Of a stretch of 32,000 nucleotides of DNA, positions 9,361-28,850 are shown piece after piece. The first letter of the stretch is position 1. Each line of letters opens with the position of its first letter. Both the position numbers and the translations under genes were made by a program. This stretch comes from Xylanibacter ruminicola 23. GTDB lineage: Bacteria; Bacteroidota; Bacteroidia; Bacteroidales; Bacteroidaceae. Below the pieces are notes generated by a model. It searched no databases. It saw nothing but the letters and a program-made list of their open reading frames with translations, and was not told where the DNA came from. The stretch lies in the NCBI RefSeq assembly GCF_000025925.1, contig NC_014033.1:1260001-1292000 (forward strand), given 5' to 3'.

Positions 9361-11424
9361 TTAGTTTTTGAATTTTACTTTCAGTCCTACCACCAGCATG
9401 CGTCCTGGTGTGTATAGCGCATACTTGCGCGTAGAAGAGTCTAAGCGACGGTCAACCTTATCGAAGATATTATCTACACCGATGCTAGGCTCCAGATAAG
9501 CCCACTTGGCCACATCAAAGGCATGCGTGGTATGCAGGTTCCACAAACCGAAACCAGGCGCATCTTCATAACTGCCCGTATAATAAGTCTTCGACTGCAA
9601 TCGTCCATTCAGGTTCACGGTGAGTGCATATTTGCCCCAGGCATGATGGTAGTTGGCTGCCACCGTAGCAGCGTGGCGCATACTGCGCTCCAGCACCGTC
9701 CACACCTCACCACTATGGGTGCGGGTATACGTATAAACATAGTTGACTGAGAGGTTGAAACCACTGAAGAGATTAGCCGACACATTCATCTGCACACCCT
9801 TCACGTCGCCTTTATCACTGTTCTGATACAGGGCGTAGCTCACCATCTTGTCGGCCTGGTCCTGTGTCATCTCCGGGAATTCTGTCATGAGCATCTGCCT
9901 ACTGGCATCATCCACATCCACATTCTGTTTCACCACCATATCGTTGATACGGTTCAGATAGCCCGTCACACTCACAGCCAGAGCCTGTGTACGATATTCA
10001 GCATTCAGTGCGAAGTAGTTGCTCTTCTCAGGCTTCAGGTCCTGATTGCCAAAGCTGATCTGTGCCTTACCACGATTCACTGAGAAATAGTGGTAGTAGA
10101 GTTCATCGAGCCCAGGTGCACGGAAACCGGCAGAGTAAGTAGCTCGGAATCTGAAGTTTCCCGGTGCATACATCAGTGTGGCTTTTGGTGTGAGATGCTG
10201 GTCAAACGTCTCATGATGCGTCAGTCGCAATCCCAGTGTCGCCGTCAGGTTCTTCAGCAGCGTCATCTCGTGCTGGGCATAGGCAGCGAGCGAATACACA
10301 TGACTGTCGATATTACCGCTGGTGGCATTGAGATACTCCTTGCGCCAGTCGGCACCGAAGATGGTGGTAGAGTGCGCTGTCAGTCCCAGGATGGCTTTCA
10401 ACTGTCCCTCCATCATGCGCTGCTTCTTCGACTGCACGTAGTCGCCAATGGCATTGGTCTTCGTGGCCACATCATACTCCTTGCCATAACGGAAACGGTC
10501 CACCACGAAATCGGCCTGAATCGAGTTCTTGGCCGTAAACTTATAGATTCCGCCCACGTTCCATCGCAGTCCTTTGTAGCGCATCTCGTAGTCGGTACCG
10601 CCAGTGATATCGCTGCGTGTTTCTGGGCGATCGGTTATCTTATATGAATAGTCTATACCCGCATTCAGCGCCAAATGCTTATTGGGGGTATAAGTAAATT
10701 TCTGTCCGATGATATCAGAGCGATAGCCGGTGAACAGCGGGGCTATCGACGCCTGAGTTTCTGTGTCGGAACCTTTCACCAGTTCCAGGTCGTTGTTACG
10801 ATAACTGTCGGCCCTATCATGCATGAACGAGGTGTAGGAACCGAAGCCATTCTTGAAGATGTCGAGACCAACCGACTCTGTGAGCACGCCATGCCCCGAC
10901 ACACGCGTGTCGCTGCTGACGCTCATCATATCCTGTGTAGGCTGATCGGTGATGATATTGATGACACCCGCGATGGCATCACTACCATAGAGTGACGAGG
11001 CAGCCCCATCAAGCACCTCGATACGTTTTACGCGCGACATGTTGATACGATTCAGATCCACATTGTTTGAGATGTCGCCCGATAGTTTCTGACCGTTTAT
11101 CAGAATCAGGATGTATTTATTGCCAAGTCCGTTCAGTCTGAGGAAGCTCCCCATGCTGCTGGGAGCCATCGATGCCTGCGGCATCATGCGTGTGAGTGCG
11201 CCGTCGAAGGTCGTGATACCTTGTTCACGCATCTCCTGACTGGAGAGCACTCTTACTGGTGTGGCTGTTGATTTCAGGCGCTGGTGATGACCAGAGCCAG
11301 TGACAACCACAGGATTTAGGTTATACGAACGACGGACAGCATTCGAGTCCGTCTTATGAATTTGTGAAAAGGCGGTACTCCCCGAAAGGAGTACCACCAG
11401 GAACGAGAAATATTTAATCCTCAT
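9361..11424 (-). CDS. TonB-dependent outer-membrane transporter (BtuB-size, second copy in the operon)
   Basis: 687-aa ORF with a signal peptide (MRIKYFSFLVVLLSGSTAFSQ). Plug-domain motifs are LNGLGNKYILILINGQKL and GAASSLYGSDAIAGVINIIT. The beta-barrel C-terminus ends ...LKVKFKN. Confidence 0.9.
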   Translation of the reverse strand: MRIKYFSFLVVLLSGSTAFSQIHKTDSNAVRRSYNLNPVVVTGSGHHQRLKSTATPVRVLSSQEMREQGITTFDGALTRMMPQASMAPSSMGSFLRLNGLGNKYILILINGQKLSGDISNNVDLNRINMSRVKRIEVLDGAASSLYGSDAIAGVINIITDQPTQDMMSVSSDTRVSGHGVLTESVGLDIFKNGFGSYTSFMHDRADSYRNNDLELVKGSDTETQASIAPLFTGYRSDIIGQKFTYTPNKHLALNAGIDYSYKITDRPETRSDITGGTDYEMRYKGLRWNVGGIYKFTAKNSIQADFVVDRFRYGKEYDVATKTNAIGDYVQSKKQRMMEGQLKAILGLTAHSTTIFGADWRKEYLNATSGNIDSHVYSLAAYAQHEMTLLKNLTATLGLRLTHHETFDQHLTPKATLMYAPGNFRFRATYSAGFRAPGLDELYYHYFSVNRGKAQISFGNQDLKPEKSNYFALNAEYRTQALAVSVTGYLNRINDMVVKQNVDVDDASRQMLMTEFPEMTQDQADKMVSYALYQNSDKGDVKGVQMNVSANLFSGFNLSVNYVYTYTRTHSGEVWTVLERSMRHAATVAANYHHAWGKYALTVNLNGRLQSKTYYTGSYEDAPGFGLWNLHTTHAFDVAKWAYLEPSIGVDNIFDKVDRRLDSSTRKYALYTPGRMLVVGLKVKFKN

Positions 11425-11443: not shown

Positions 11444-12604
11444 TTATTCGGCAGCTGTTGTAGGAGTCGAGAGGGCGTCGTCGGTGCCCAGCTTGGCGAT
11501 AGCCTCACGGGTGTGGTTCATCCACAACTTGCGCACGGCACTACGCTCAGCCAGTCCGGGGATATACTCCTCGCCGCTCTTATACTTCTTCCAGCAAGCC
11601 TCAGTGTAGTTGGTCTCATAGGCAGCAGTCTCAATGCCTGCAGCATTAAACATAGAGAACCAGCTTTCATCATCCTCATCATCAGCCATATCGTTGTGGG
11701 CGTGATCACCGGCGATACTCATCAGCACAAACAGCTGAGCCTTCTTGCTTGCATTCTCAGGATAAGATATGGTCTTGGTTACATCGCCAATCTGATAGTC
11801 GAATGTGCCACCAGCAATGTGGTTAAGAACATCCTCGGCATAAGTCTCGTCCATATCAACGGTACCTACATAGAAGTTAGGATTGATTTCGCGCAGATAC
11901 TCCTCGAGCTGCAGGTAGCGCACGTTACCACCATAGTAGTCGTAACCCTCTGGATTACCATGACCCATGAAAGCCACGATACCCTGAGCCACAGCGGCCT
12001 TCACGTCAGCCTCGTTGTTCAGTGTGGTAGCCAGTGTCTTGGCGTCGCTCTCCTCAGCCATCAGTGGGGTACCTACAACCACCTGGCGGTCCAGACTCTT
12101 CATGTAAGCATCAGTGAAGTCACCATTACGGTTGTTCATAAAGTCCTTCACATAGCTGTCGCGCACACGGCGATACTCTTCACCAGGGATTACCTGCAGC
12201 GACTGTACCACCACCTGCTTGTAACCAGCCAGACCGATAGCGGTGAGCCAGTGCTCGGGGTCGTAATAGTCCTTAGGTTCCACATTCTCACCCGCACGGG
12301 CATTGTTGATACAGATGGCCGAAGAGAATGAGAGATATACATCCCATCCACCGAACTGAGCCTTGTAGTCATCCACCACCTTATCAAAGGTGTCATAGGC
12401 CTGTTCCCAGGTAGAACCGAAGGCTACCAGCAGGATCACCTTGTCACTCTTCTTCTGTGCATTCACTGTCTGGTTCACAGCCTGCTGATACCTGTCATAG
12501 TTCGACTGTGTTGATTTGTTGTCATCATCGCTGTCGCAAGCTGTAAACAGTGCGCTGCCCACTACTGTCAGCATGGCCAGCATCAAAAACTTAATCTGTT
12601 TCAT
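11444..12604 (-). CDS. Lipoprotein homologue of sirohydrochlorin cobaltochelatase CbiK (class II chelatase fold), predicted exported and surface-exposed
   Basis: 386-aa ORF with a lipoprotein signal (MKQIKFLMLAMLTVVGSALFTA|C) followed by an acidic run (CDSDDDNK). CbiK-like blocks run the whole length: VILLVAFGST, VVVQSLQVIPGEEY, VAFMGHGNPEG, LMSIAGDHAHNDMADDEDDESWFSMFNAAGIE, IPGLAERSAVRKLW. Confidence 0.85.
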   Translation of the reverse strand: MKQIKFLMLAMLTVVGSALFTACDSDDDNKSTQSNYDRYQQAVNQTVNAQKKSDKVILLVAFGSTWEQAYDTFDKVVDDYKAQFGGWDVYLSFSSAICINNARAGENVEPKDYYDPEHWLTAIGLAGYKQVVVQSLQVIPGEEYRRVRDSYVKDFMNNRNGDFTDAYMKSLDRQVVVGTPLMAEESDAKTLATTLNNEADVKAAVAQGIVAFMGHGNPEGYDYYGGNVRYLQLEEYLREINPNFYVGTVDMDETYAEDVLNHIAGGTFDYQIGDVTKTISYPENASKKAQLFVLMSIAGDHAHNDMADDEDDESWFSMFNAAGIETAAYETNYTEACWKKYKSGEEYIPGLAERSAVRKLWMNHTREAIAKLGTDDALSTPTTAAE

Positions 12605-14705
12605 TGTTGTTGTAATTAAAATTAGACTTAAACTTATTTGATAGTTTCTTACCTTGATTGAATCTCAGCGTGAGCGAGGCATAGATAGTTCTGCCTGGCG
12701 AGGTGGTGCCCAAATGCAGTCCGTGAGGCGTGCGGTCCACGAAATCAAAGATGTTGTCGATACCGGCATCCACTTTCAGCAGTCGGCCTATCTGATGATT
12801 GGTTGAGAGTCGCCACAATTGATAACCCTTGCCGTCGCCGTCTATCTGATAGTAGCGCTTACTGCTCAAGCGTCCGTAGATACCCACGCCCAACTGGTAT
12901 TTCTTTGAGAACTGATGATTCCAGGTGGCATATACGTTAGCCTTGTGATGCGCCATACCGTCGATGGTCACCTTCTGCATCACGTCGTTCTCAGTGTCAT
13001 ACTGGTTGGCTTCGGTGTCCAGATAGCTGTAGCTACCACCAGCGGTGAAGTGCTTACCCTGATAGCGCACGGTGAAATCCACGCCATAGGTCTTGGCATC
13101 TTCCATATTCTGATATTGACGCACACGGATGGGGTCGTATTTCGTAATCAGTTCGCCCGGAGCCTGCTTGGTAGGTATGGTCACCAGCGTGATCATGCGG
13201 TCCACCTTATTAATATAAGGCGCCAAGGTCAGCGTCAGGTGCCCGATGGTATATTCCACGCTGGCACCGAAATAATTCGAGGTCTGTGCCTTCAGGTCTT
13301 CATTGCCCAGGTAGAGATACACACCATTCATATTCTTGATATACTGATAGTGCAACTCCTTAGGCGTAGGTGTCTTGTAACCCTGACTCCAGGTGGCTCG
13401 CAGTCGCAGGTCGCCCAACTTCAGCATGGCTGACAGTTTGGGTGTCAGTCGGGTGCCGAATCCCTCATTGCGGGTCAGTCGCAAACCGCCTGTGATGTGG
13501 AGTGGATCCAGCAGTGCCCACTCGTCCTGCACATACAGTGCTTCGGTATTGTCAGTCGCTTTTCCGCCAGCCACACGCATCGGCGCTTTCAACCAGTCGT
13601 AGCGATACTCCAGTCCGGCACTCAACTGCTGCTCATAGGGCAACGCAAAGATTCCTTTCAGCGAGATGTTAGTCAGTCGCTGGTCGCTCTGCAGTTCCTT
13701 ATCACCGGGGAAGTAAGGGAAATAATTGGTAAAACGGCCGTTCACATAGCCATCCGTCAGCGTGGTGTCGGTATAGGCGTAGTTATAGGCATGCTTCTTC
13801 CAGTCGGCATCCAGCGTAATCACGTCGGTCTTGTTCAGCTTCCACTTACCACCTACTGACGCCGACGCATTGTTGTACTGCAGATCCCATGTCTTCACGT
13901 CCACACCGGGATGATGACCGCAGGGGCGATAGATGCGCTTCCAGTAGATGCTACCGTCGGCATAGAGTTCGATGGCAGGCGTGAGCTGATAAGTCAGTCG
14001 CTCAGCTATCTGCCAGTTGGTATGCCGGTTCACCGTCTTGTTGCGCGAGTCGGTGATGTGGTATTCCGTTTGTTGGATAGCTTCCTCGGCGGTGTTCTGC
14101 CAACCGTCGGAGTGCTGCAATTGGAAGTTGGTGTAGCTCGACAGTTTACCATAGTTGAGCGCCACGCCGTTATGCTGCCTGATGTCGCCATAAGTGCCTA
14201 CGCGCGTGGTGTTCTCCACCATCACGCCCTGTTCGCGATGCTTGCGGGTGATGATATTGATCACACCAGCTATCGCATCACTGCCATAGAGGGCACTCGA
14301 GGCACCCTTCACGATTTCTATCTTCTCGATATTATGCGGGTCGATAAGACTCAGGTCGTTCTCGCCACCATTATCACCATGCAGGCGCCTACCGTCTATC
14401 AGTATCAGCACATACGCGTTGCCCAGACCATTCATCTGCAGTCTGCTACTCATATCGTTCTCGCTGAAATCGAACGATGCCGTGAGTCCCGACAGGATAT
14501 CCTCGATACTCTTGCCGGCATACTGCTGCAACTGCCGGCGACTGATTACTTCGGTCTGCACGGGCGCATCTTTCAGCAGGTGCTGCGTACCAGTACCTGT
14601 CACCACCACCTCCTGCAAACTATCAGCACGCCAAATGTCGGTCTGGGCATTTGCACCAATAGCAAGCAAACTCAGGCCTATTGCCAATTGCTTCCCTAGT
14701 TTCAT
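12591..14705 (-). CDS. TonB-dependent outer-membrane transporter (BtuB-like, first gene after the B12 riboswitch)
   Basis: I place the start at the ATG at 14705 (MKLGKQLAIGLSLLAIGANAQ signal peptide). The track's TTG start at 14768 would lie immediately adjacent to the riboswitch. Plug motifs are MNGLGNAYVLILIDGRRL and GASSALYGSDAIAGVINIIT. The barrel strand ...IYASLTLRF is followed by a 22-aa tail. Confidence 0.9.
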   Translation of the reverse strand: MKLGKQLAIGLSLLAIGANAQTDIWRADSLQEVVVTGTGTQHLLKDAPVQTEVISRRQLQQYAGKSIEDILSGLTASFDFSENDMSSRLQMNGLGNAYVLILIDGRRLHGDNGGENDLSLIDPHNIEKIEIVKGASSALYGSDAIAGVINIITRKHREQGVMVENTTRVGTYGDIRQHNGVALNYGKLSSYTNFQLQHSDGWQNTAEEAIQQTEYHITDSRNKTVNRHTNWQIAERLTYQLTPAIELYADGSIYWKRIYRPCGHHPGVDVKTWDLQYNNASASVGGKWKLNKTDVITLDADWKKHAYNYAYTDTTLTDGYVNGRFTNYFPYFPGDKELQSDQRLTNISLKGIFALPYEQQLSAGLEYRYDWLKAPMRVAGGKATDNTEALYVQDEWALLDPLHITGGLRLTRNEGFGTRLTPKLSAMLKLGDLRLRATWSQGYKTPTPKELHYQYIKNMNGVYLYLGNEDLKAQTSNYFGASVEYTIGHLTLTLAPYINKVDRMITLVTIPTKQAPGELITKYDPIRVRQYQNMEDAKTYGVDFTVRYQGKHFTAGGSYSYLDTEANQYDTENDVMQKVTIDGMAHHKANVYATWNHQFSKKYQLGVGIYGRLSSKRYYQIDGDGKGYQLWRLSTNHQIGRLLKVDAGIDNIFDFVDRTPHGLHLGTTSPGRTIYASLTLRFNQGKKLSNKFKSNFNYNNNETD

Positions 14706-14770
14706 TACTATCAAATTATCACAACCGCTAACTCCTGAACGGTCTAAAGTTAAATTGTCAATCTTCAATT

Positions 14771-14945
14771 GACATTCGGCAGGTCTTCTGACTTTCCTCA
14801 GTCTGTCTTACCTTCCCGAGCCTGTGGCTCAGTGGCGTTATACAGGCAAACCCTTTTTGCGAGGATTACAGCTGCAGGTACAGTTACGGATTCTCACCGT
14901 ATTCCCTTTTCATCGTAGTGGCATCGGCCACCAGATGACCTTATT
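14771..14945 (-). promoter_or_regulatory. Cobalamin (B12) riboswitch
   Basis: The reverse complement reads ...GGUGGCCGAUGCCACUACGAUGAAAAGGGAAUACGGUGAGAAUCCGUAACUGUACCUGCAGCUGUAAUCC...CGCCACUGAGCCACAGGCUCGGGAAGGUAAGACAGACUGAGGAAAGUCAGAAGACCUGCCGAAUGUC. It contains the conserved GGGAA..GGUG..AAUCC core, GCCACUG, GGGAAGG and the B12 box AGUCAGAAGACCUGCC. It sits directly upstream of a TonB-dependent transporter. Confidence 0.92.
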
Positions 14946-14952
14946 TTGGCGA

Positions 14953-15031: not shown

Positions 15032-16309
15032 ATGTCGAACAAGACAGCGTTTATGATAGCAGCACCCACCAGTGGTTCAGGCAAGACAACCATTGCCCGA
15101 GGCCTGATGCAGTGGTTCACCCAGAACGGTTACCGGGTGCAGCCCTTCAAGTGCGGGCCCGATTATATCGACACTAAATTCCACACAGCTGTCTGTGGGC
15201 ACCCGTCGGTCAATCTCGATACCTTTATGACTACGCCCGCACACGTACGCGCGCTATTTGCGCACTACGGGACTGATGCTGACATCTGTATCGTCGAAGG
15301 TATGATGGGCCTTTATGATGGCTACGATCGCGAACTGGGTTCGTCGTACGACATCGCCCGCGTGCTTGATATTCCCGTGATTCTGGTGGTCGATGCTAAA
15401 TCGGCAGCCTACTCGATGACAGCCCTCTTATCGGGCTTTATCCACTTCCGCGGCGACGTTCGTATCGCTGGTATAATATTTAACAAAGTTGGTTCGCAGC
15501 GCCACTTCAACATGCTGCGCGAAGTGTGCGATGAGCTCCATGTCAAGTGCCTGGGCTACCTGCCTAAATCGCCCGACCTGGAGCAAAATTCACGCTATCT
15601 GGGGCTCGATTTCTCACAACTACCCGAGTCAGACCAGTTGACTGCCCTTTTAGAGGAGAATATCGACCTCCCATCTCTCAAAAGTCTCACTACCACGCTC
15701 CATGACGAGGTAAAGTCCCAAACAAGAAACTGCGAGTTCCGGCATCTGGAAACGAAAACGCTTATAGCCAGGAATCATGAAAGTTTTTCGTTCATCTATC
15801 AGGAGACTTTAGACCAGTTTGGCGACGTCATTTTCTTCGATCCTGAGAAAGATGTGCCAACTTTTGATGGCATCGACCTGCTCTATCTGCCAGGCGGTTA
15901 TCCTGAGAAGCACCTGGAGGCATTAGTGCCCAATCAGGCTTGTCTGCATGCTATCAAAAAATTTGCGGAAGATGGCGGCAGGATTGTTGCCGAATGTGGC
16001 GGTATGATGTACCTCTGTCAAGCCATCATTACCGACGATGGAAGTTTCCCCATGTGCGGTGTACTGCCCTACTCGATCACTGCCCGCAAAGCTGATCGCA
16101 AGCTGTCCTTAGGCTACCGCCAGTTCACCCTCGATGGCAAGACCTATCGAGGGCACGAATTCCATTACACGCAATTCATCGGCGATACCCCTGAGAGTAT
16201 CACCCAAGTCTATAACGCTAAAGGTGAGCCTGTACCAACGCCAATTTTCAGATATCACAACGTACTAGCCAGCTACACGCACCTTTATCAAATACCCAGC
16301 ATCCTATGA
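15032..16309 (+). CDS. cbiA: Cobyrinate a,c-diamide synthase
   Basis: I place the start at the ATG at 15032 (MSNKTAFMIAAPTSGSGKTT); the track's TTG start at 15008 overlaps the promoter box. It shows PFKCGPDYID and a C-terminal GATase domain (ECGGMMYL ... GHEFHY). The stop overlaps the next ATG (ATGA). Confidence 0.92.
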   Translation: MSNKTAFMIAAPTSGSGKTTIARGLMQWFTQNGYRVQPFKCGPDYIDTKFHTAVCGHPSVNLDTFMTTPAHVRALFAHYGTDADICIVEGMMGLYDGYDRELGSSYDIARVLDIPVILVVDAKSAAYSMTALLSGFIHFRGDVRIAGIIFNKVGSQRHFNMLREVCDELHVKCLGYLPKSPDLEQNSRYLGLDFSQLPESDQLTALLEENIDLPSLKSLTTTLHDEVKSQTRNCEFRHLETKTLIARNHESFSFIYQETLDQFGDVIFFDPEKDVPTFDGIDLLYLPGGYPEKHLEALVPNQACLHAIKKFAEDGGRIVAECGGMMYLCQAIITDDGSFPMCGVLPYSITARKADRKLSLGYRQFTLDGKTYRGHEFHYTQFIGDTPESITQVYNAKGEPVPTPIFRYHNVLASYTHLYQIPSIL

Positions 16310-17559
16310 AATTCATCGTCATCGGTATCACAGACAACCCCAACCCCTATTTTCCCCCTGAGGTGATGGCCATCATACGCGATGGAAAGGTGTTTTCTGG
16401 CGGCAAGCGCCACCATGAGATTGTAGCCCCGCTGCTGCCTGCAGATGCCGAATGGATAGACATCACTGTACCGCTCGATGCCGTATTTGATAAGTACTCT
16501 CAACATGCATCACTCCACTCGACCTTTGGTCGCTCGCAAAGCGAGAACACTAGAAACTCAACAGAAATCATCGTCTTTGCTTCTGGGGATCCGCTGTTCT
16601 TTGGGTTTGCGAATACGATTCGTAGGAAGATTCCAGATGCTGAAATCATCGTCTATCCTACCTTCAACTCGCTGCAGTTGCTGGCCCACCGATTGGTGAT
16701 GCCCTATCACGACATGCGTATCGTGTCGCTCACAGGGCGCCCCTGGGCAGAATTCGACAGAGCACTCATCGAGCGCGCACCGAAGATAGGTATTCTAACC
16801 GACCGTGAACATACACCTGCCACGATAGCCCAGCGCATGACCGACTACGGATATACCGATTTCATCATGCACGTGGGCGAGAAATTAGGCAATCCATCGG
16901 AAGAGCACCTTTCTACGCTTTCGCCGAAAGAGGCAATCCATCGTGATTTTGCCATGCCTAATTGCATCATCCTGGAACACCGTGGCGCAGTGCCACCACG
17001 ACCATTCGGCATTCCCGATGCAGCCTTCACACTCCTCGACGGGCGCGAAAAGATGATCACCAAGATGCCCATCCGCTTGTTGACGCTGCAGGCCCTCCAG
17101 TTGACCGGTCGCCATGTGCTCTGGGATATCGGCTTCTGCACAGGTAGCGTCAGCATCGAGGCGCGCCTGCAGTTCCCACACCTGCAAATAGAGGCTTTCG
17201 AGATTCGTCCTGAGTGCGAATCCATCATCCAGCAGAACACTCGGAAGTTTGGCGCGCCAGGCATCCATACCCATATAGGCGACTTCCTAAAGACAGACGT
17301 ATCAGGCCTGCCCCAACCTGATGCTGTATTCATAGGCGGTCATGGAGGAAAACTTAAAGAAATCATAGCTAAGTTGCTGACAGTCATATCAGATAACGGC
17401 ATCATTGTATTCAATAGCGTCACCTCACCGAAGGTCACCACCGACAGTCATCAGCTTTGGGATGAAGCCTGTGCCGAACTCGGTTTGCAGCAATTCCCAC
17501 CCCAACACATACAATTAAATGATTATAACCCCATAGAGATATTATCATGCAAAAAATAG
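16306..17559 (+). CDS. cbiET: Fusion protein: precorrin-6Y/cobalt-precorrin-7 C5-methyltransferase (CbiE) plus cobalt-precorrin-6B C15-methyltransferase, decarboxylating (CbiT); CobL-like
   Basis: 417-aa ORF. The N-terminal methylase shows VFASGDPLFFG. The C-terminal Rossmann methyltransferase shows LWDIGFCTGSVSIEA and FIGGHGG. It carries the 39-nt in-frame repeat module at 16513-16551. Confidence 0.88.
   Translation: MKFIVIGITDNPNPYFPPEVMAIIRDGKVFSGGKRHHEIVAPLLPADAEWIDITVPLDAVFDKYSQHASLHSTFGRSQSENTRNSTEIIVFASGDPLFFGFANTIRRKIPDAEIIVYPTFNSLQLLAHRLVMPYHDMRIVSLTGRPWAEFDRALIERAPKIGILTDREHTPATIAQRMTDYGYTDFIMHVGEKLGNPSEEHLSTLSPKEAIHRDFAMPNCIILEHRGAVPPRPFGIPDAAFTLLDGREKMITKMPIRLLTLQALQLTGRHVLWDIGFCTGSVSIEARLQFPHLQIEAFEIRPECESIIQQNTRKFGAPGIHTHIGDFLKTDVSGLPQPDAVFIGGHGGKLKEIIAKLLTVISDNGIIVFNSVTSPKVTTDSHQLWDEACAELGLQQFPPQHIQLNDYNPIEILSCKK
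16513..16551 (+). repeat. 39-nt hairpin-containing repeat module, copy A, in frame inside cbiET (encodes LHSTFGRSQSENT)
   Basis: ctccactcgacctttggtcgctcgcaaagcgagaacact is 34/39 identical to 25192-25230 and is read in the same frame. The core hairpin is CTCGC-AAA-GCGAG. Confidence 0.8.
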
Positions 17560-19322
17560 CCATCATACAGATTAGCGATGCTGGCAGCGAAATCGCCAGT
17601 CAGTTGCAGTGCGAACTCGGTGCCGAACTCATCCAACGAACCGATGTTGGTAACCAATGGGCAGCCTATGATGCCTTCGTTTTCATCGGTGCCATGGGCA
17701 TCTGCGTGCGCACCATCGCCCCTTACATCGAAGACAAGCATACCGACCCGGCCGTGGTCTGCATCGACAGTTTTGGGCTCAACGTCATCTCCGTTCTCTC
17801 CGGCCATATCGGTGGCGCCAACGACTTGACACGCCACATTGCCGCCCATCTTGGTGCGCACGAAGTGATCACCACCCAGAGCGACAATGCCGGACTGTGG
17901 GCACTCGACACGTTGGACAAGCAGTTCAACTGGAATATGGTGGGGTTTGACGATATCAACGCGTGCATCAGCGCTTTCGTGAATCGCGAGCCCACTGCAC
18001 TGCTCATGGATATCCGCGACGCAGGTACCGACTTTCTGGAGCGCACCCTGCCCGACCATGTCACCATCGTCAACAGCATAGATGAGGTTACCCCCAAAAG
18101 ATTCAGACTGCTTATCCAGGTGACGCCCTACATCATCGACACCCCACCAGGCGTACTCAAGGTGTGCTATGTGCCAAAGGTAGGCGTACTGGGATTTGGT
18201 CTGGCTAGTCATCCAGCCAACTACGAGCACATCCTTGAAGAAATCGACGAGGCCATCACTGACAACGATATCATGCCTTGCTACAAGCGCTTCTGCACCA
18301 TCGATGTGAAGCGGGATGAGGAGTTCTGCGCCAAACTCCAAAAAGAAACAAATAGCGAGGTGGTATATTACACCGGCGAGGAGTTGGCCAAAGTAGAAGT
18401 ACCCAATCCCAGCGAAACCGTAGAGAAACATGTGGGCACGCCCTCAGTCTGCGAGGCAGCGGCTATTCTCGGTTCCAACCACGGCAAACTGATTCTTCCT
18501 AAGATAAAAGGTAAGAACTGGACGGCGGCCTTGGCCATCGACCACAAATACCTGCGCGAGCAGAAAGGACACATAGAGATTGTAGGCGCAGGCCCTGGCG
18601 ATCCCGATTTGGTAAGTGTACGAGGACGCAAGATGCTCGAAAGGGCTGATTTGATACTCTATGCAGGCTCACTTGTTCCAAAGGCTTTGACGGAGTGCCA
18701 CAAGCCAGGAGCAGTAGTTCGTTCGTCAGCTGATATGGCACTCGAGGAACAATGCGAGCTGATGAAGAAGTTCTATGACGAGGGCAAATTCATCGTGCGC
18801 CTCCATACAGGCGACCCATGTATCTTTGGCGCTATCCAGGAACAGATGGCCTTCTTCGATGCCAACCACATGGAATACCATATCACTCCAGGCATCAGCT
18901 CGTTTCTGGCGGCAGCAGCCGAACTGCAGAGTCAGTTCACGATTCCAGAGCGCTGTCAGACGATTATTCTGACCCGTGGCGAAGGACGCACACCCATGCC
19001 CGAGAAAGAACAGTTGCACCTGTTGGCCAAGAGTCAGAGCACGATGTGCATCTTCCTCTCAGCCAGTATCGTAGATGATGTGCAGCGCGAACTGCTGCAG
19101 GAGTACCCCGAGGATACGCCCGTAGCTGCCTGCTATCACCTTACCTGGCCCGACCAGAAGATCTATCGCGGAGTACTTAAAGATTTAGCTCAGATAGTTC
19201 ACGATAACCACTTGACGCTCACCACGATGCTCGTTGTTGGAGAGGCTATCGACAACCGTCAAGGACTGTCTGAACTCTATTCAAAAAACTTCACTCATCT
19301 ATTCCGAAAAGGCAAAGCATGA
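17547..19322 (+). CDS. cbiGF: Fusion protein: cobalt-precorrin-5A hydrolase (CbiG, N-terminal) plus cobalt-precorrin-4 C11-methyltransferase (CbiF/CobM, C-terminal)
   Basis: 591-aa ORF. The N-terminal roughly 330 aa are CbiG-like (FIGAMGICVRTIAP, VLSGHIGGAN, VCEAAAIL). From about residue 342 it has tetrapyrrole methylase motifs (IEIVGAGPGDPDLVSVRG, VRLHTGDPCIFGA). It overlaps cbiET by 13 nt. Confidence 0.88.
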   Translation: MQKIAIIQISDAGSEIASQLQCELGAELIQRTDVGNQWAAYDAFVFIGAMGICVRTIAPYIEDKHTDPAVVCIDSFGLNVISVLSGHIGGANDLTRHIAAHLGAHEVITTQSDNAGLWALDTLDKQFNWNMVGFDDINACISAFVNREPTALLMDIRDAGTDFLERTLPDHVTIVNSIDEVTPKRFRLLIQVTPYIIDTPPGVLKVCYVPKVGVLGFGLASHPANYEHILEEIDEAITDNDIMPCYKRFCTIDVKRDEEFCAKLQKETNSEVVYYTGEELAKVEVPNPSETVEKHVGTPSVCEAAAILGSNHGKLILPKIKGKNWTAALAIDHKYLREQKGHIEIVGAGPGDPDLVSVRGRKMLERADLILYAGSLVPKALTECHKPGAVVRSSADMALEEQCELMKKFYDEGKFIVRLHTGDPCIFGAIQEQMAFFDANHMEYHITPGISSFLAAAAELQSQFTIPERCQTIILTRGEGRTPMPEKEQLHLLAKSQSTMCIFLSASIVDDVQRELLQEYPEDTPVAACYHLTWPDQKIYRGVLKDLAQIVHDNHLTLTTMLVVGEAIDNRQGLSELYSKNFTHLFRKGKA

Positions 19323-21088
19323 TACTGGTATTTGGTGGAACAACAGAGGGACGCAAAGCCGTGGAGGTGTTGGAAGAAGGGGGTTCGCCCTACTTCTACA
19401 GCACAAAGACCGGCGAGCAGGACATCACGCTGCAGCATGGTGTGCGCATAGACGGCGCACTCGATGAGGCAGCAATGATGCACTTTTGCACCGAGCACGG
19501 CATCCGGATGATAGTGGATGCCGCCCACCCCTTTGCAGCACTGTTGCACCAGACCATTGCCAAGACTGCCAGCGCACTCTCGCTGCCCGTAGTACGCTTT
19601 GAACGCATCTACCCGCCATGCGACCCTGCCATCACCTGGATTGACGACTACACCCAGATACCACACGACATCCATAGCCTTCTCGCCACCACCGGCGTGC
19701 AGAGCATCAGCAAACTGAAACCGCTCGCGGCCGATGGAATCAGTATCTTTTATCGCATCCTCAACCGACCGTCGTCGATCGCCTTAGCTCTGAAACAAGG
19801 TGCCACCCAAGCGCAGCTATGCTATTACGACGACCCCAATGATATACCCGTTCAAGCAGACGCTATCTTATTGAAAGAAAGCGGTTTATCAGGCGGATTT
19901 ACAGAAAAGGTAGTAGCAGCCAAAGCCTGCGGCATGCGTGTGATAGCCATCAAGCGCCCAGAACAGCCCAAATCATTCATCGTGGTTGACGGTCCTTACG
20001 GGTTACGGAGAATGGTAGAGAAGCTACTGCCAGAGTTCTATCCCCTGCATAGCGGACTCACCACGGGCACCTGTGCCACAGCAGCAGCGGTGGCAGCCTG
20101 CATCCGACTGACTTCAGGCGAGATGCCTGCCGAAGTGCCTGTGATGCTGCCTAACGGCGAGACCATCCATGTAGCAGTGAGCTATGGCGACGACTATGTC
20201 GCCTGCATCAAAGAAGCCGGCGACGACCCGGATGTTACCAATGGCATCGAGGTCAGGGCCCAGGTCACCGAATCCGATCACTTTGAGATTCTTGGTGGCG
20301 AGGGTGTTGGCAGGTTTACGCTGCCTGGCTTCGATTATCCCCCAGGCGAGGCTGCCATCAACAAGGCACCACGGGAGATGATTCGCCAGAACTTAGAAAG
20401 ATTGAAGATGGAAGATGGAAGATTGAAGATTGTGATTAGTGTGCCGCAGGGGGCTGAGATTGCGCGCAGGACTTTTAATCCGCGATTGGGGATTGAAGGG
20501 GGCATCTCCATCATTGGTGTTTCGGGCATCGTAAAGCCGTTTAGCGAGGAGGCGTTTGTGGATAGTATCCGTAAGTGTATGACGGTGGCTAAGGCGTCTC
20601 AATCGGCAAGAGTGGTGATCAATAGCGGCGGAAAGAGTGAGCGGTTTGTGAAGGCCCTCTACCCCGAGCTGCCCCAACAGGCGTTTGTGGAGTATGGCAA
20701 CTATATTGGCGAGACGCTCAAGATAGCCCACGAACTGGATATACGCAGCATCACACTCGGCGTGATGATAGGCAAAGCTGTCAAACTGGCGGCTGGTCAT
20801 CTCGACACGCATAGCAAACGCGCCACCATGGATAAAGCGTTTATCAGTGAGATGCTGCACGAGGCCCATTGCGATATCGACATCAGCGATATCACCTTGG
20901 CACGCGAGATATGGGAGAGACTCTCCCCAGAACAACAACAGGATTTTGCCGACGTCATCATCAGCCATTGCGCCGCTTATTGTCAACCGCTACTGCCCAA
21001 TGGCGAGTTGACTATTCTTCTGATTGCCGACGACGGAACAATACTACCGCTATCACCGGCGCACCAACCAGTGCCGTCACGGAGTTAA
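19319..21088 (+). CDS. cbiJD: Fusion protein: cobalt-precorrin-6A reductase (CbiJ/CobK, N-terminal) plus cobalt-precorrin-5B C1-methyltransferase (CbiD, C-terminal)
   Basis: 589-aa ORF. The N-terminus MILVFGGTTEGR and DAAHPFA are CbiJ-like. From about residue 241 it is CbiD-like (GLTTGTCATAAAVAA, NPRLGIEGGISIIGVSGIVKPFS). ATGA overlap with cbiGF. The last 77 nt overlap the convergent permease gene. Confidence 0.88.
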   Translation: MILVFGGTTEGRKAVEVLEEGGSPYFYSTKTGEQDITLQHGVRIDGALDEAAMMHFCTEHGIRMIVDAAHPFAALLHQTIAKTASALSLPVVRFERIYPPCDPAITWIDDYTQIPHDIHSLLATTGVQSISKLKPLAADGISIFYRILNRPSSIALALKQGATQAQLCYYDDPNDIPVQADAILLKESGLSGGFTEKVVAAKACGMRVIAIKRPEQPKSFIVVDGPYGLRRMVEKLLPEFYPLHSGLTTGTCATAAAVAACIRLTSGEMPAEVPVMLPNGETIHVAVSYGDDYVACIKEAGDDPDVTNGIEVRAQVTESDHFEILGGEGVGRFTLPGFDYPPGEAAINKAPREMIRQNLERLKMEDGRLKIVISVPQGAEIARRTFNPRLGIEGGISIIGVSGIVKPFSEEAFVDSIRKCMTVAKASQSARVVINSGGKSERFVKALYPELPQQAFVEYGNYIGETLKIAHELDIRSITLGVMIGKAVKLAAGHLDTHSKRATMDKAFISEMLHEAHCDIDISDITLAREIWERLSPEQQQDFADVIISHCAAYCQPLLPNGELTILLIADDGTILPLSPAHQPVPSRS

Positions 21089-24493: not shown

Positions 24494-24519
24494 ATCCCTG
24501 TTAATCCGTGCCTAAAAAA

Positions 24520-25593
24520 ATGAAGTCATTCGCAATTCAACCCGTTGACCAAACGATTAAGCCAAGTATTCTGGCAAAGATTGACAACCTGAACAAGCCC
24601 AAAGGTTCACTGGGCCGATTGGAAGAGTTGGCCCTACAGATATGTTTGATTCAGCAGACGCTGGAACCGAGTCTCGCCCACCCCTGTCACCTGCTGTTGG
24701 GCGGCGATCATGGCATCGAGCGCGAAGGCGTGAGCGTGTCGCCACGCGAGGTCACCTGGCAGCAGATGATCAACTTCACCCATGGCGGTGGCGGTGTGAA
24801 CATGTTCTGTAGGCAGCATGGTTTCAAGTTGCGTATTGTGGATGTGGGTGTGGATTATGATTTATCGGGCATCGATGGTATCATCGATCGCAAGATAGCC
24901 CGCGGCACCAAGAACTTCCTCTATGAACCCGCGATGAGTGAGGCCGAGTTCGACCGCGCCATCCAGATAGGCAGCGACTTGGTTGACGACTGCGTGGCCG
25001 AAAGCTGTCGTGTGCTCAGTATCGGTGAGATGGGTATTGCCAACACGTCGCCTTCCAGCATCTGGATGCACCTGTTCACGGGCATTCCCTTAGCAGACTG
25101 CATCGGTGCCGGAGCCGGCCTAGACACCCCCGGCATCCAGCATAAATATCAAGTACTCTCGCAAGCCGTCAACAACTATCACCTCTCAAATCTCCGCTCG
25201 ACCTCAGGTCGCTCGCAAGGCGAGAACTCTCACCTCTCACCTCTCAGTTATTTTGGTGGTTTCGAAATGGTAGCTGCTATCGGCGCCATGCTAAAAGCCG
25301 CCGAAAAGCATCTGGTGATACTCGTCGACGGCTTTATTATGACGGCCTGTGCGTTGGCTGCTATTCAGCTATATTCTGCCGCTCAGGACTACATGATTTT
25401 TGCACATTGTGGTGATGAGAGCGGCCACAAGCGCATGCTCGATGCGATGGGTGCAAATGCCTTGCTGCATCTGGGTTTGCGATTAGGCGAAGGCACTGGT
25501 GCTCTCTGTGCATTCCCGATAGTTGATTCAGCCGTTCGGATGATGAACGAGATGAACAACTTCGAGAACGCCAATATCACCAAGTATTTTTAA
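24520..25593 (+). CDS. cobT: Nicotinate-nucleotide--dimethylbenzimidazole phosphoribosyltransferase
   Basis: ATG at 24520 (the track's GTG is at 24508). CobT motifs are KPKGSLGRLEELA, GDHGI, IGEMGIANTS, GGFEMVAAIGAML and RLGEGTGA. It carries the in-frame repeat module at 25192-25230. Confidence 0.92.
   Translation: MKSFAIQPVDQTIKPSILAKIDNLNKPKGSLGRLEELALQICLIQQTLEPSLAHPCHLLLGGDHGIEREGVSVSPREVTWQQMINFTHGGGGVNMFCRQHGFKLRIVDVGVDYDLSGIDGIIDRKIARGTKNFLYEPAMSEAEFDRAIQIGSDLVDDCVAESCRVLSIGEMGIANTSPSSIWMHLFTGIPLADCIGAGAGLDTPGIQHKYQVLSQAVNNYHLSNLRSTSGRSQGENSHLSPLSYFGGFEMVAAIGAMLKAAEKHLVILVDGFIMTACALAAIQLYSAAQDYMIFAHCGDESGHKRMLDAMGANALLHLGLRLGEGTGALCAFPIVDSAVRMMNEMNNFENANITKYF
25192..25230 (+). repeat. 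39-nt hairpin-containing repeat module, copy B, in frame inside cobT (encodes LRSTSGRSQGENS)
   Basis: ctccgctcgacctcaggtcgctcgcaaggcgagaactct is 34/39 identical to 16513-16551. It is bracketed by the direct repeat cacctctca at 25180-25188 and 25231-25239, with a further overlapping copy at 25238-25246. The repeat spacing is 51 nt, or 17 codons. Confidence 0.8.
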
Positions 25594-28805: not shown

Positions 28806-28850
28806 GTCGTTATTTATTGTTTATTGTTGTTATCATCGCGAAAACAGATG

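Follow-up and report, generated by a model that had tools for sequence, protein, structure and literature searches.

The DNA described here is a stretch of 32,000 nucleotides (nt) from Xylanibacter ruminicola 23 (contig NC_014033.1, positions 1,260,001 to 1,292,000), referred to at its full length as the window. Two genes of vitamin B12 synthesis on its plus strand each contain a copy of the same short, hairpin-bearing sequence. The first gene (16306-17559) encodes a fused CbiE/CbiT precorrin-6Y methyltransferase. The second (24508-25593) encodes CobT, the nicotinate-nucleotide:dimethylbenzimidazole (DMB) phosphoribosyltransferase. The subject of this article is that sequence, a unit of 30 nt, and how it came to be present in both genes. 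An earlier reading of the window, made from its letters alone and called the original prediction below, had proposed both a small mobile palindromic element and a regulatory handle shared by B12 operons.

The repeat unit and its two host genes

The segments at 16513-16551 and 25192-25230 are identical at 34 of 39 positions, and three of the five differences are located in hairpin loops. Both segments are on the coding strand and in the same phase, just as originally described. A 21-nt core of the sequence is found twice in the window, compared with 0 of 100 shuffles. The repeated unit is 30 nt long rather than the 39 nt first proposed, as filled and empty alleles and nested copies demonstrate (see below). 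It occupies positions 16516-16545 and 25195-25224 and has the layout CGCT-CGACC-nnn-GGTCG-CTYGC-AAG-GCRAG, in which a 4-nt CGCT foot precedes two abutting hairpins, each with a 5-bp stem and a 3-nt loop. In the window, these hairpins are CGACC-nnn-GGTCG and CTCGC-AAR-GCGAG, side by side; the original prediction recognized the second but missed the first. The predicted single-stranded DNA (ssDNA) fold of the unit is exactly these two hairpins (-8.3 kcal/mol, z about -2.5 to -3.3).

Copy 1, CACTCGACCTTTGGTCGCTCGCAAAGCGAG, is located at 16516-16545 on the plus strand. Its foot is at 16516-16519, hairpin 1 at 16520-16532 and hairpin 2 at 16533-16545. Position 2 is A, where the family has G. Copy 2, CGCTCGACCTCAGGTCGCTCGCAAGGCGAG, is located at 25195-25224 on the plus strand, with hairpin 1 at 25199-25211 and hairpin 2 at 25212-25224, and it matches the family consensus except in loop 1. 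Both copies start on a codon boundary, since 16516-16306 and 25195-24508 are divisible by 3. In this phase (phase 0), copy 1 encodes HSTFGRSQSE, residues 71-80 of CbiE/T, and copy 2 encodes RSTSGRSQGE. The AAC that follows copy 1 on its 3' side (16546-16548, plus strand) is the conserved AAY of the family, which belongs to the target and lies outside the mobile unit.

In CbiE/T, copy 1 is part of a lineage-specific segment of about 16 codons (16513-16560, plus strand; about residues 70-85), the rest of which consists of decayed repeat-like flanks. This block is absent from an orthologue that is 95% identical (P0122, 401 amino acids; DNA at L161:2157-2240) and from several others. Other lineages have different inserts at the same position, and X. 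ruminicola D31d and Ga6B6 carry the orthologous copy. Because of the G-to-A change in its foot and its decayed flanks, copy 1 looks older. A search of PDB sequences returned no relative of the CbiE domain, so copy 1 could not be placed on a structure. The CbiE/T orthologues have two more indel hotspots, the linker between CbiE and CbiT and a loop of CbiT (columns 262-283 and 388-392 of alignment A2). Some lineages have inserts of up to about 20 residues there, and the window allele is short at both.

CobT orthologues are 82-94% identical and 340-390 amino acids long, and they differ almost solely in one insert-bearing loop. The CobT of X. ruminicola D31d (340 amino acids, 92% identical) has no insert and shows the short form ...RRFRG-EPLSYFGG. 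Together with P0122, this allele confirms by orthologue alignment that the insertion is lineage-specific at both sites, as had been predicted. The window allele (25174-25245) consists of three heptamers, the element and three further heptamers. The left array, AACTATC ACCTCTC AAATCTC (25174-25194, plus strand), stops exactly at the element. In the right array, AACTCTC ACCTCTC ACCTCTC (25225-25245, plus strand), the first AA(C) is the AAY that abuts the element. The direct repeat cacctctca, said in the original prediction to flank the insert, is indeed present, but it occurs three times (25180, 25231 and 25238) and belongs to the heptamer array. It was rejected as a target duplication for this reason, and because clean insertions duplicate nothing.

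Some CobT alleles have only heptamers in the loop (P0014/L162). In other lineages (L037:1988-2182, L038:3667-3810, L039:1344-1487) the loop contains other small double-hairpin elements, always between heptamers. These are an element termed B (GCTCGGCTTTGCCGCTTGGCTCGTCCAAGAAC), a CGAGC-AAA-GCTCG unit and a relative with a long loop. B is present twice in the L037 loop, and one of these copies is interrupted by the 30-nt element in reverse orientation, with a compensated CTTGC/GCAAG stem. One CobT orthologue (P0003, 390 amino acids) shows an apparent tandem duplication of about 33 residues (...IPLDECIGAGAGLDTPGIHHKYEVLSNALANYQ...) in the hypervariable loop (columns 240-290 of alignment A1). The CobT insert falls opposite a gap in an alignment with 1wx1, the solved CobT of Thermus, and it is a low-confidence coil in an AlphaFold model that is itself poor, with a predicted local distance difference test (pLDDT) score of 52 and a shallow alignment.

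Family, insertion site and reading frame

The same unit can be found in many other places. A genome scan, in which each species was represented by a single genome and the pattern fixed the four stem arms only, found 36 loci. Of these, 25 are in rumen Prevotella and Xylanibacter (Prevotellaceae), and all 25 share an extended 33-nt context, C-GCT-[hairpins]-AA(Y). The other 11 matches, in GC-rich genomes and without the extended context, are probably due to chance. A metagenome scan with deliberately degenerate stem positions found at least 120 loci, almost all in rumen samples. All loci together comprise at least 156 copies at no fewer than 121 distinct sites, nearly all in rumen Prevotellaceae; site and copy counts given from here on are among the matches listed (156 copies, 121 sites). 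Paralogy, which had already been dismissed because the two hosts are unrelated enzymes, cannot account for 121 distinct sites in many Prevotellaceae genomes and metagenomes.

Rfam 15 contains no covariance model that matches the element, even at E <= 10, and the sole match above threshold in the window is the cobalamin riboswitch. In the literature searched, neither the sequence of the element nor any account of such a Prevotella repeat was found. As a mobile DNA element of 30 bases with a double hairpin, it appears not to have been described before.

Intergenic DNA and gene edges account for about 75 of the 121 sites, and about 46 are confidently within open reading frames (ORFs), as assigned by an open-frame heuristic. 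Both orientations and all frames occur. Pfam matches in a sample of ten host ORFs include GH3 (two different sites), GH115, a GltD-like oxidoreductase, type III glutamine synthetase, TrpF, a carboxylesterase, a TonB-dependent receptor, and Cthe_2159-like and Sde182-like proteins. GH43, CobT and CbiE/T are further hosts. The element is also found in protein C-termini of the form GIYI-[insert]-NGKK, which a reading of the motif, without a family search, suggests may be sorting domains of the type IX secretion system (T9SS). Two viral contigs from IMG/VR carry it as well (L164:3594-3624 and L165:5159-5189). The copy in L164 is within an AACGTTC heptamer array and in the usual phase, with the peptide RSTFGRLQGK in an open frame.

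Decayed copies are few (about 6 in 954 kb), which implies that the copies are young, turn over fast, or both. The element forms local clusters at L058, L107, L135, L054, L108 and L043. Among them are three tandem copies whose spacing, 37 or 44 nt, is that of the 30-nt unit with one or two heptamers added. At L043, two copies 144 nt apart form an inverted pair similar to a REPIN.

The anatomy of an insertion can be read from alleles with and without the element. Element B, a related sequence of 32 nt, is known from 11 uninterrupted or near-uninterrupted copies. Seven B copies hold exactly 30 nt, the reverse complement of the element, between GCTCGGCTTT and GCCGCTTGG, and no base is duplicated.

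A second example can be found in GH43 proteins. More than 50 orthologues have the empty form HGSICEI|NGQWYVFYH (the bar marks the insertion point), and 44 have the filled form HGSICEI[RSTSGRSQGE]NGQWYVFYH, in which ten codons are placed ahead of a pre-existing Asn codon. At the DNA level, empty gagatc|aacgga (L167; gaaatc|aatggc in L166) corresponds to filled gagatc-CGCTCGACCTCTGGTCGCTCGCAAGGCGAG-aacgga. Across 1400 flanking nt, the filled locus L005 and the empty locus L167 share 96.8% identity, and the element accounts for the only gap between them. The GH43 site confirms a prediction from the array data, namely that the AAY behind the element is part of the target.

In a tree of GH43 sequences with the element masked, filled and empty alleles interleave. 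For example, P0284 (filled) is 98.0% identical to P0287 (empty) and only 88% identical to other filled alleles. The same site has thus been hit, or precisely vacated, more than once. The GH43 copy is identical at 30 of 30 positions, compared with 85.7% identity of its flanks. Constraint at the nucleotide level was considered as a cause, but separate recent events at the same site fit better.

At sites outside arrays, the flanks show a target of C (70%) followed by A A Y, with Y at position +3 in 85%. In the scan whose pattern kept those positions open, 23 of the 25 Prevotellaceae matches have AA directly after the element. The mobile unit is exactly 30 nt long, inserts at C|AAY without target duplication and has no terminal inverted repeats. 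A 33-nt unit that includes the AAY was rejected because arrays keep their phase across the element, B gains 30 nt and GH43 gains ten codons. Flanking duplications, which the original prediction suggested looking for, do not occur at array-free insertions. This also argues against a 7-bp duplication with excision footprints as the origin of the arrays.

Gain and loss of the 30 nt are discrete at C|AAY and depend on the two hairpins. Of the four stem 2 combinations that the search pattern allowed, only the two matched ones occur, CTTGC/GCAAG in 109 copies and CTCGC/GCGAG in 47, and the mismatched ones are absent (0 copies). Stem 1 has compensated variants, CGGCC/GGCCG in four copies and CGGTC/GACCG in one, in addition to two G.T and three C.A cases. 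At the stem positions left free, changes are therefore mostly compensating pairs, and for hairpin 2 this holds in all 156 copies. The bases of the loops differ between the copies listed. The unit has a sharp left boundary, and its 5' foot, CGCT, shows 96-100% conservation.

The element belongs to a superfamily. A regular expression that left the inner stem positions free found 30 distinct relatives of 30-45 nt with the scaffold GCTCG-[hairpin 1]-CGCTT-[hairpin 2]-AAG|AA. Hairpin 2 is fully Watson-Crick paired in 27 of the 30, with five stem sequences, in counts that are uncorrected for relatedness. Superfamily elements insert into one another. They are also modular, in that hairpins 1 and 2 are mixed between members (e.g., L057:6537, L079, L126:369 and L039 minus strand 3754). 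One variant of hairpin 2 has a 12-nt loop (TACCnnAGGGAC).

Many copies are associated with short tandem arrays. About 30% of sites (36/117) are within or adjoin arrays with periods of 6 to 10, mostly heptamers such as AATTCTC, AACTCTC, AACTATG and AATGTTC. The element is always at a boundary between array units, so that the following unit supplies the AAY. Period-7 arrays of at least 2.8 units number 148 in about 0.9 Mb of Prevotellaceae loci, or approximately one per 6 kb, and the period histogram of Tandem Repeats Finder peaks at 7 and 9. Since arrays occupy about 0.6% of the DNA and host about 30% of sites, the element is enriched in them about 50-fold.

In the window, period-7 arrays are located at 1228-1253, 25227-25246 and 28813-28828. 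Such arrays occur within genes although 7 is not a multiple of 3, and they are reminiscent of the cyanobacterial STRR heptamers. A third B12 gene of the window has an insert of this type. Five tandem heptamers, AAGATTG/AAGATGG (AATCTTC on the other strand), are found at 20398-20432 inside a CbiJ/CbiD-like ORF (19319-21088). They encode ...ERLKMEDGRLKI..., contain no hairpin element and are also present at L033:4465-4499.

The reading frame of intragenic copies can largely be explained by the target. Ten codons long and with zero stop codons in six frames, the unit never breaks a reading frame. The family peptide in phase 0, RSTSG R(S/L)QG(E/K), is hydrophilic and rich in Gly and Ser. Of the peptides from the six frames, that of phase 0, RSTSGRSQGE, is the most hydrophilic, with a grand average of hydropathy (GRAVY) of -1.99. 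Sense phase 0 is found at 26 of 46 intragenic sites (p = 1e-9 versus 1/6). The target C|AAY occurs as NNC|AAY, its commonest phase, in 389 of 989 occurrences in host ORFs (39%, both orientations), and most intragenic copies are in phase 0 as a consequence. From the availability of C|AAY, 18.1 of the 46 sites would be expected in phase 0, and the 26 observed exceed this (p = 0.014); over all six classes, the chi-square p is 0.11. Selection for a hydrophilic peptide loses weight as the sole cause of the bias, because availability already predicts 39% and two likewise hydrophilic antisense frames are rare. Selection may add a modest extra share of phase 0. The shared frame of the two window copies is no sign of shared function and follows mostly from target choice and codon usage. 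Target specificity and codon usage can thus make a selfish element look protein-friendly.

Mobility and its alternatives

The two segments are best explained as mutually independent copies of one mobile DNA element, very small, non-autonomous and dispersed among the rumen Prevotellaceae. The probability of this reading is put at roughly 0.7. It agrees with the idea, already present in the original prediction, of a small mobile palindromic element that is tolerated in frame in variable loops, and it is supported by the 121 sites and the exact filled and empty alleles. The element might be cut and pasted as folded ssDNA by a putative trans-acting enzyme of the HUH type (IS200/IS605 or RAYT-like). 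Such a reaction would explain gain and loss that are precise and leave no footprint. Surviving intragenic copies would be those in tolerant surface loops, linkers or termini.

Published surveys place the Y1 HUH subclasses 1.2, 2.4 and 2.6 in Bacteroidetes. Subclass 2.6, found mostly in this group, has genes bordered by atypical hairpins, and these hairpins also turn up at other places in the genome (PMC6006769). A broader and more tentative proposal, which is possible but doubtful, is that the 30-nt units, their 30-45-nt relatives and the heptamer arrays are all products of one ssDNA cut-and-paste system in Bacteroidota, possibly Y1 HUH 2.6. The element would then excise and reinsert precisely at C|AAY. 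Being ten codons long, free of stops and directed mostly to phase 0, it would act as a natural mutagen that inserts peptides in frame and keeps remodelling the surface loops of enzymes in rumen Prevotella. If so, the element would be among the smallest active DNA transposons known.

Several observations count against a mobile element. No Y1- or RAYT-like ORF was found in about 1 Mb of fetched loci by tblastn with approximate IS200 TnpA and E. coli RAYT queries or by a motif regular expression, which are weak tests and no evidence of absence. Because the patterns used to collect the copies fix most stem bases, part of the observed conservation is a product of the sampling, and only the positions left degenerate on purpose are free of this bias. 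Species representatives each gave only 1-2 exact matches, and the division into coding and intergenic sites is heuristic. The placement of the CobT insert in a surface loop is weakly indicated by the alignment gap and the poor model. Finally, neither window copy is a clean 30-nt insertion. Each is within a lineage-specific block of 48-51 nt with repeat-like flanks, and its arrival may therefore have involved recombination between arrays.

This last point leads to an alternative in which no transposase takes part. Here the element would spread by recombination, gene conversion or template-switching between heptamer arrays, with the hairpins as slippage-prone passengers. The window copies, with their repeat-like flanks and blocks longer than 30 nt, fit this mechanism, as do the concentration of sites in arrays and the tandem 37-nt and 44-nt repeats of element plus heptamer in L058 and L135. 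It is nevertheless unlikely. The GH43 insertion at gagatc|aacgga is a clean 30 nt without an array or flanking homology, and the element is also inserted in the loop of element B. In arrays that are unrelated in sequence, the element is found at the same unit boundary, and slippage is not expected to produce precise loss where there are no flanking repeats.

A mobile element also has to be distinguished from a unit kept for its function in the host, either as an RNA hairpin (a handle for an RNase, small RNA or protein, or a stabilizer of mRNA) or as a flexible peptide cassette. Covarying stems, the scarcity of decayed copies and a phase-0 share somewhat above the prediction from the target motif would all be expected of such a unit, and repeats of the REP type have been reported as RNA elements in other bacteria (PMC3733652). 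Host function is quite improbable, however, given that presence and absence differ between alleles that are 97-98% identical and among close strains. Intergenic DNA contains the element as well, and copies are found in either orientation and in every frame. Its peptide is not conserved (RSTSGRSQGE, RSTSGRLQGK, RSTKGR.., RSAQGR..), and Rfam has no match.

A more specific proposal of this kind was part of the original prediction. The shared hairpin was suggested to coordinate, after transcription, two B12 operons that lack a riboswitch. Two copies do occur within 9 kb, both in B12 genes, and the only cobalamin riboswitch of the window (14761-14950, minus strand) is on the strand opposite the cbi and cob genes. 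This proposal is very improbable all the same. X. ruminicola D31d keeps the cbiET copy without the cobT copy, and P0122 has no cbiET copy. In other lineages, the CobT loop holds different small elements or heptamers only. More than 100 other sites have no connection to B12, among them GH43, GH3, GH115, TrpF, glutamine synthetase, phage contigs and, for the most part, intergenic DNA. The presence of the element in two B12 genes of one window would reflect two hypervariable, array-bearing loops and not B12 regulation, to which nothing ties it.

That the two window loci resemble each other by chance, or through local gene conversion, can be given almost no weight: nothing beyond the shared window speaks for it, the core occurs twice in none of the shuffles, each copy is nearer to the family consensus than to the other copy, and in place of the absence of further copies that the original prediction had allowed for, the family is widespread, at 121 distinct sites.

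Two neighbouring features of the window may be mentioned here. The cobalamin riboswitch scores 93.7 bits, and its 3' end overlaps the start of a minus-strand ORF (12591-14768). It is divergent from the cbi operon, which begins at about 15008 on the plus strand. Two large minus-strand ORFs, 9361-11424 and 12591-14768, share a 45-nt direct repeat (10948-10992 and 14247-14291) with 89% identity, which is probably a motif conserved between paralogous genes for outer-membrane receptors.

Few mobile DNA units of this size have been documented, and the main precedent known to us is the small dispersed repeats of cyanobacteria described below. The family provides unusually clean material for the study of mechanism, with an exact 30-nt unit, a C|AAY target, near-isogenic alleles, nested insertions and compensatory hairpin variants. 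It also explains part of the hypervariability of loop length in Prevotella enzymes, which is relevant to annotation and to the comparison of orthologues and strains in rumen metagenomes.

Relation to known small repeats

Judged by analogy, the element would belong to the class of very small dispersed hairpin repeats, now in a new phylum. In behaviour it seems closest to the small dispersed repeats (SDR) of cyanobacteria, followed by the repetitive extragenic palindromic (REP) elements.

SDR1-8 of Nostoc and its relatives, from Elhai et al. 2008, are reportedly repeats of tens of bases that show compensatory changes in their hairpins, are embedded in heptamers and can be nested. SDR5 inserts between nucleotides 3 and 4 of HIP1, and SDRs have been reported from Nostocaceae only. 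The likeness includes a mobile unit of a few tens of nt with a conserved hairpin, its presence in heptamer arrays, in other small elements and in genes, and precise insertion. By description, the element differs in its length (30 nt versus 21-27 nt). It also differs in having two abutting hairpins and a 4-nt foot, in its target (C|AAY versus HIP1) and in its host, which is a member of the Bacteroidota. We know of no established mechanism by which SDRs are mobilized.

REP elements and their RAYT enzymes offer a second comparison. REPs are GC-rich hairpin units of 20-40 nt with a short conserved 5' foot; the element, with its 30 nt and two 5-bp hairpins, is similar. Like REPs and the IS200/IS605 elements, it has no terminal inverted repeats, makes no target duplication, inserts beside a short fixed motif and is gained and lost precisely. 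REPs, too, are known in frame within ORFs (PMC3733652). The foot of the element is CGCT, however, and neither GT[AG]G nor CGTC is present at either end. It has two different hairpins instead of one. At the 121 sites, single units appear to predominate over one inverted pair (L043) and a few tandem clusters, whereas REPs form inverted doublets (REPIN/BIME). Its copy number is apparently in the tens rather than the hundreds.

The element can also be compared with miniature elements of the IS200/IS605 type. The exact 30-nt filled and empty pairs show the absence of terminal inverted repeats and of target site duplications that marks these elements. The two hairpins of the element fill the whole unit, and its target C|AAY is RTT|G on the other strand. 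Its hairpins are 0 and 4 nt from the presumed points of cleavage, which is much shorter than the 19 and 10 nt of IS608. No full-length element that encodes TnpA and has the same ends was seen in the fetched loci.

Bacterial miniature inverted-repeat transposable elements (e.g., Correia/NEMIS, RUP and Nezha) are 70-300 bp long, with terminal inverted repeats and target duplications (PMC3733652). The element is likewise non-autonomous, dispersed, small and structured, and it is found in or beside genes. Its termini, CGCT... and ...GCRAG, are not inverted repeats, and it makes no duplication.

A last comparison, drawn in the original prediction, is with the Rickettsia palindromic elements (RPE). 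These are about 100-150 bp long and encode 30-50 residues. Their in-frame insertion is mentioned in PMC3733652. The comparison holds for behaviour, since both are palindromic repeats found in frame within functional genes and apparently tolerated in surface regions. It does not extend to membership, as the element has only 30 nt and ten residues, occurs in another phylum and is unrelated in sequence. For the element, moreover, an exact target and filled and empty alleles are documented.

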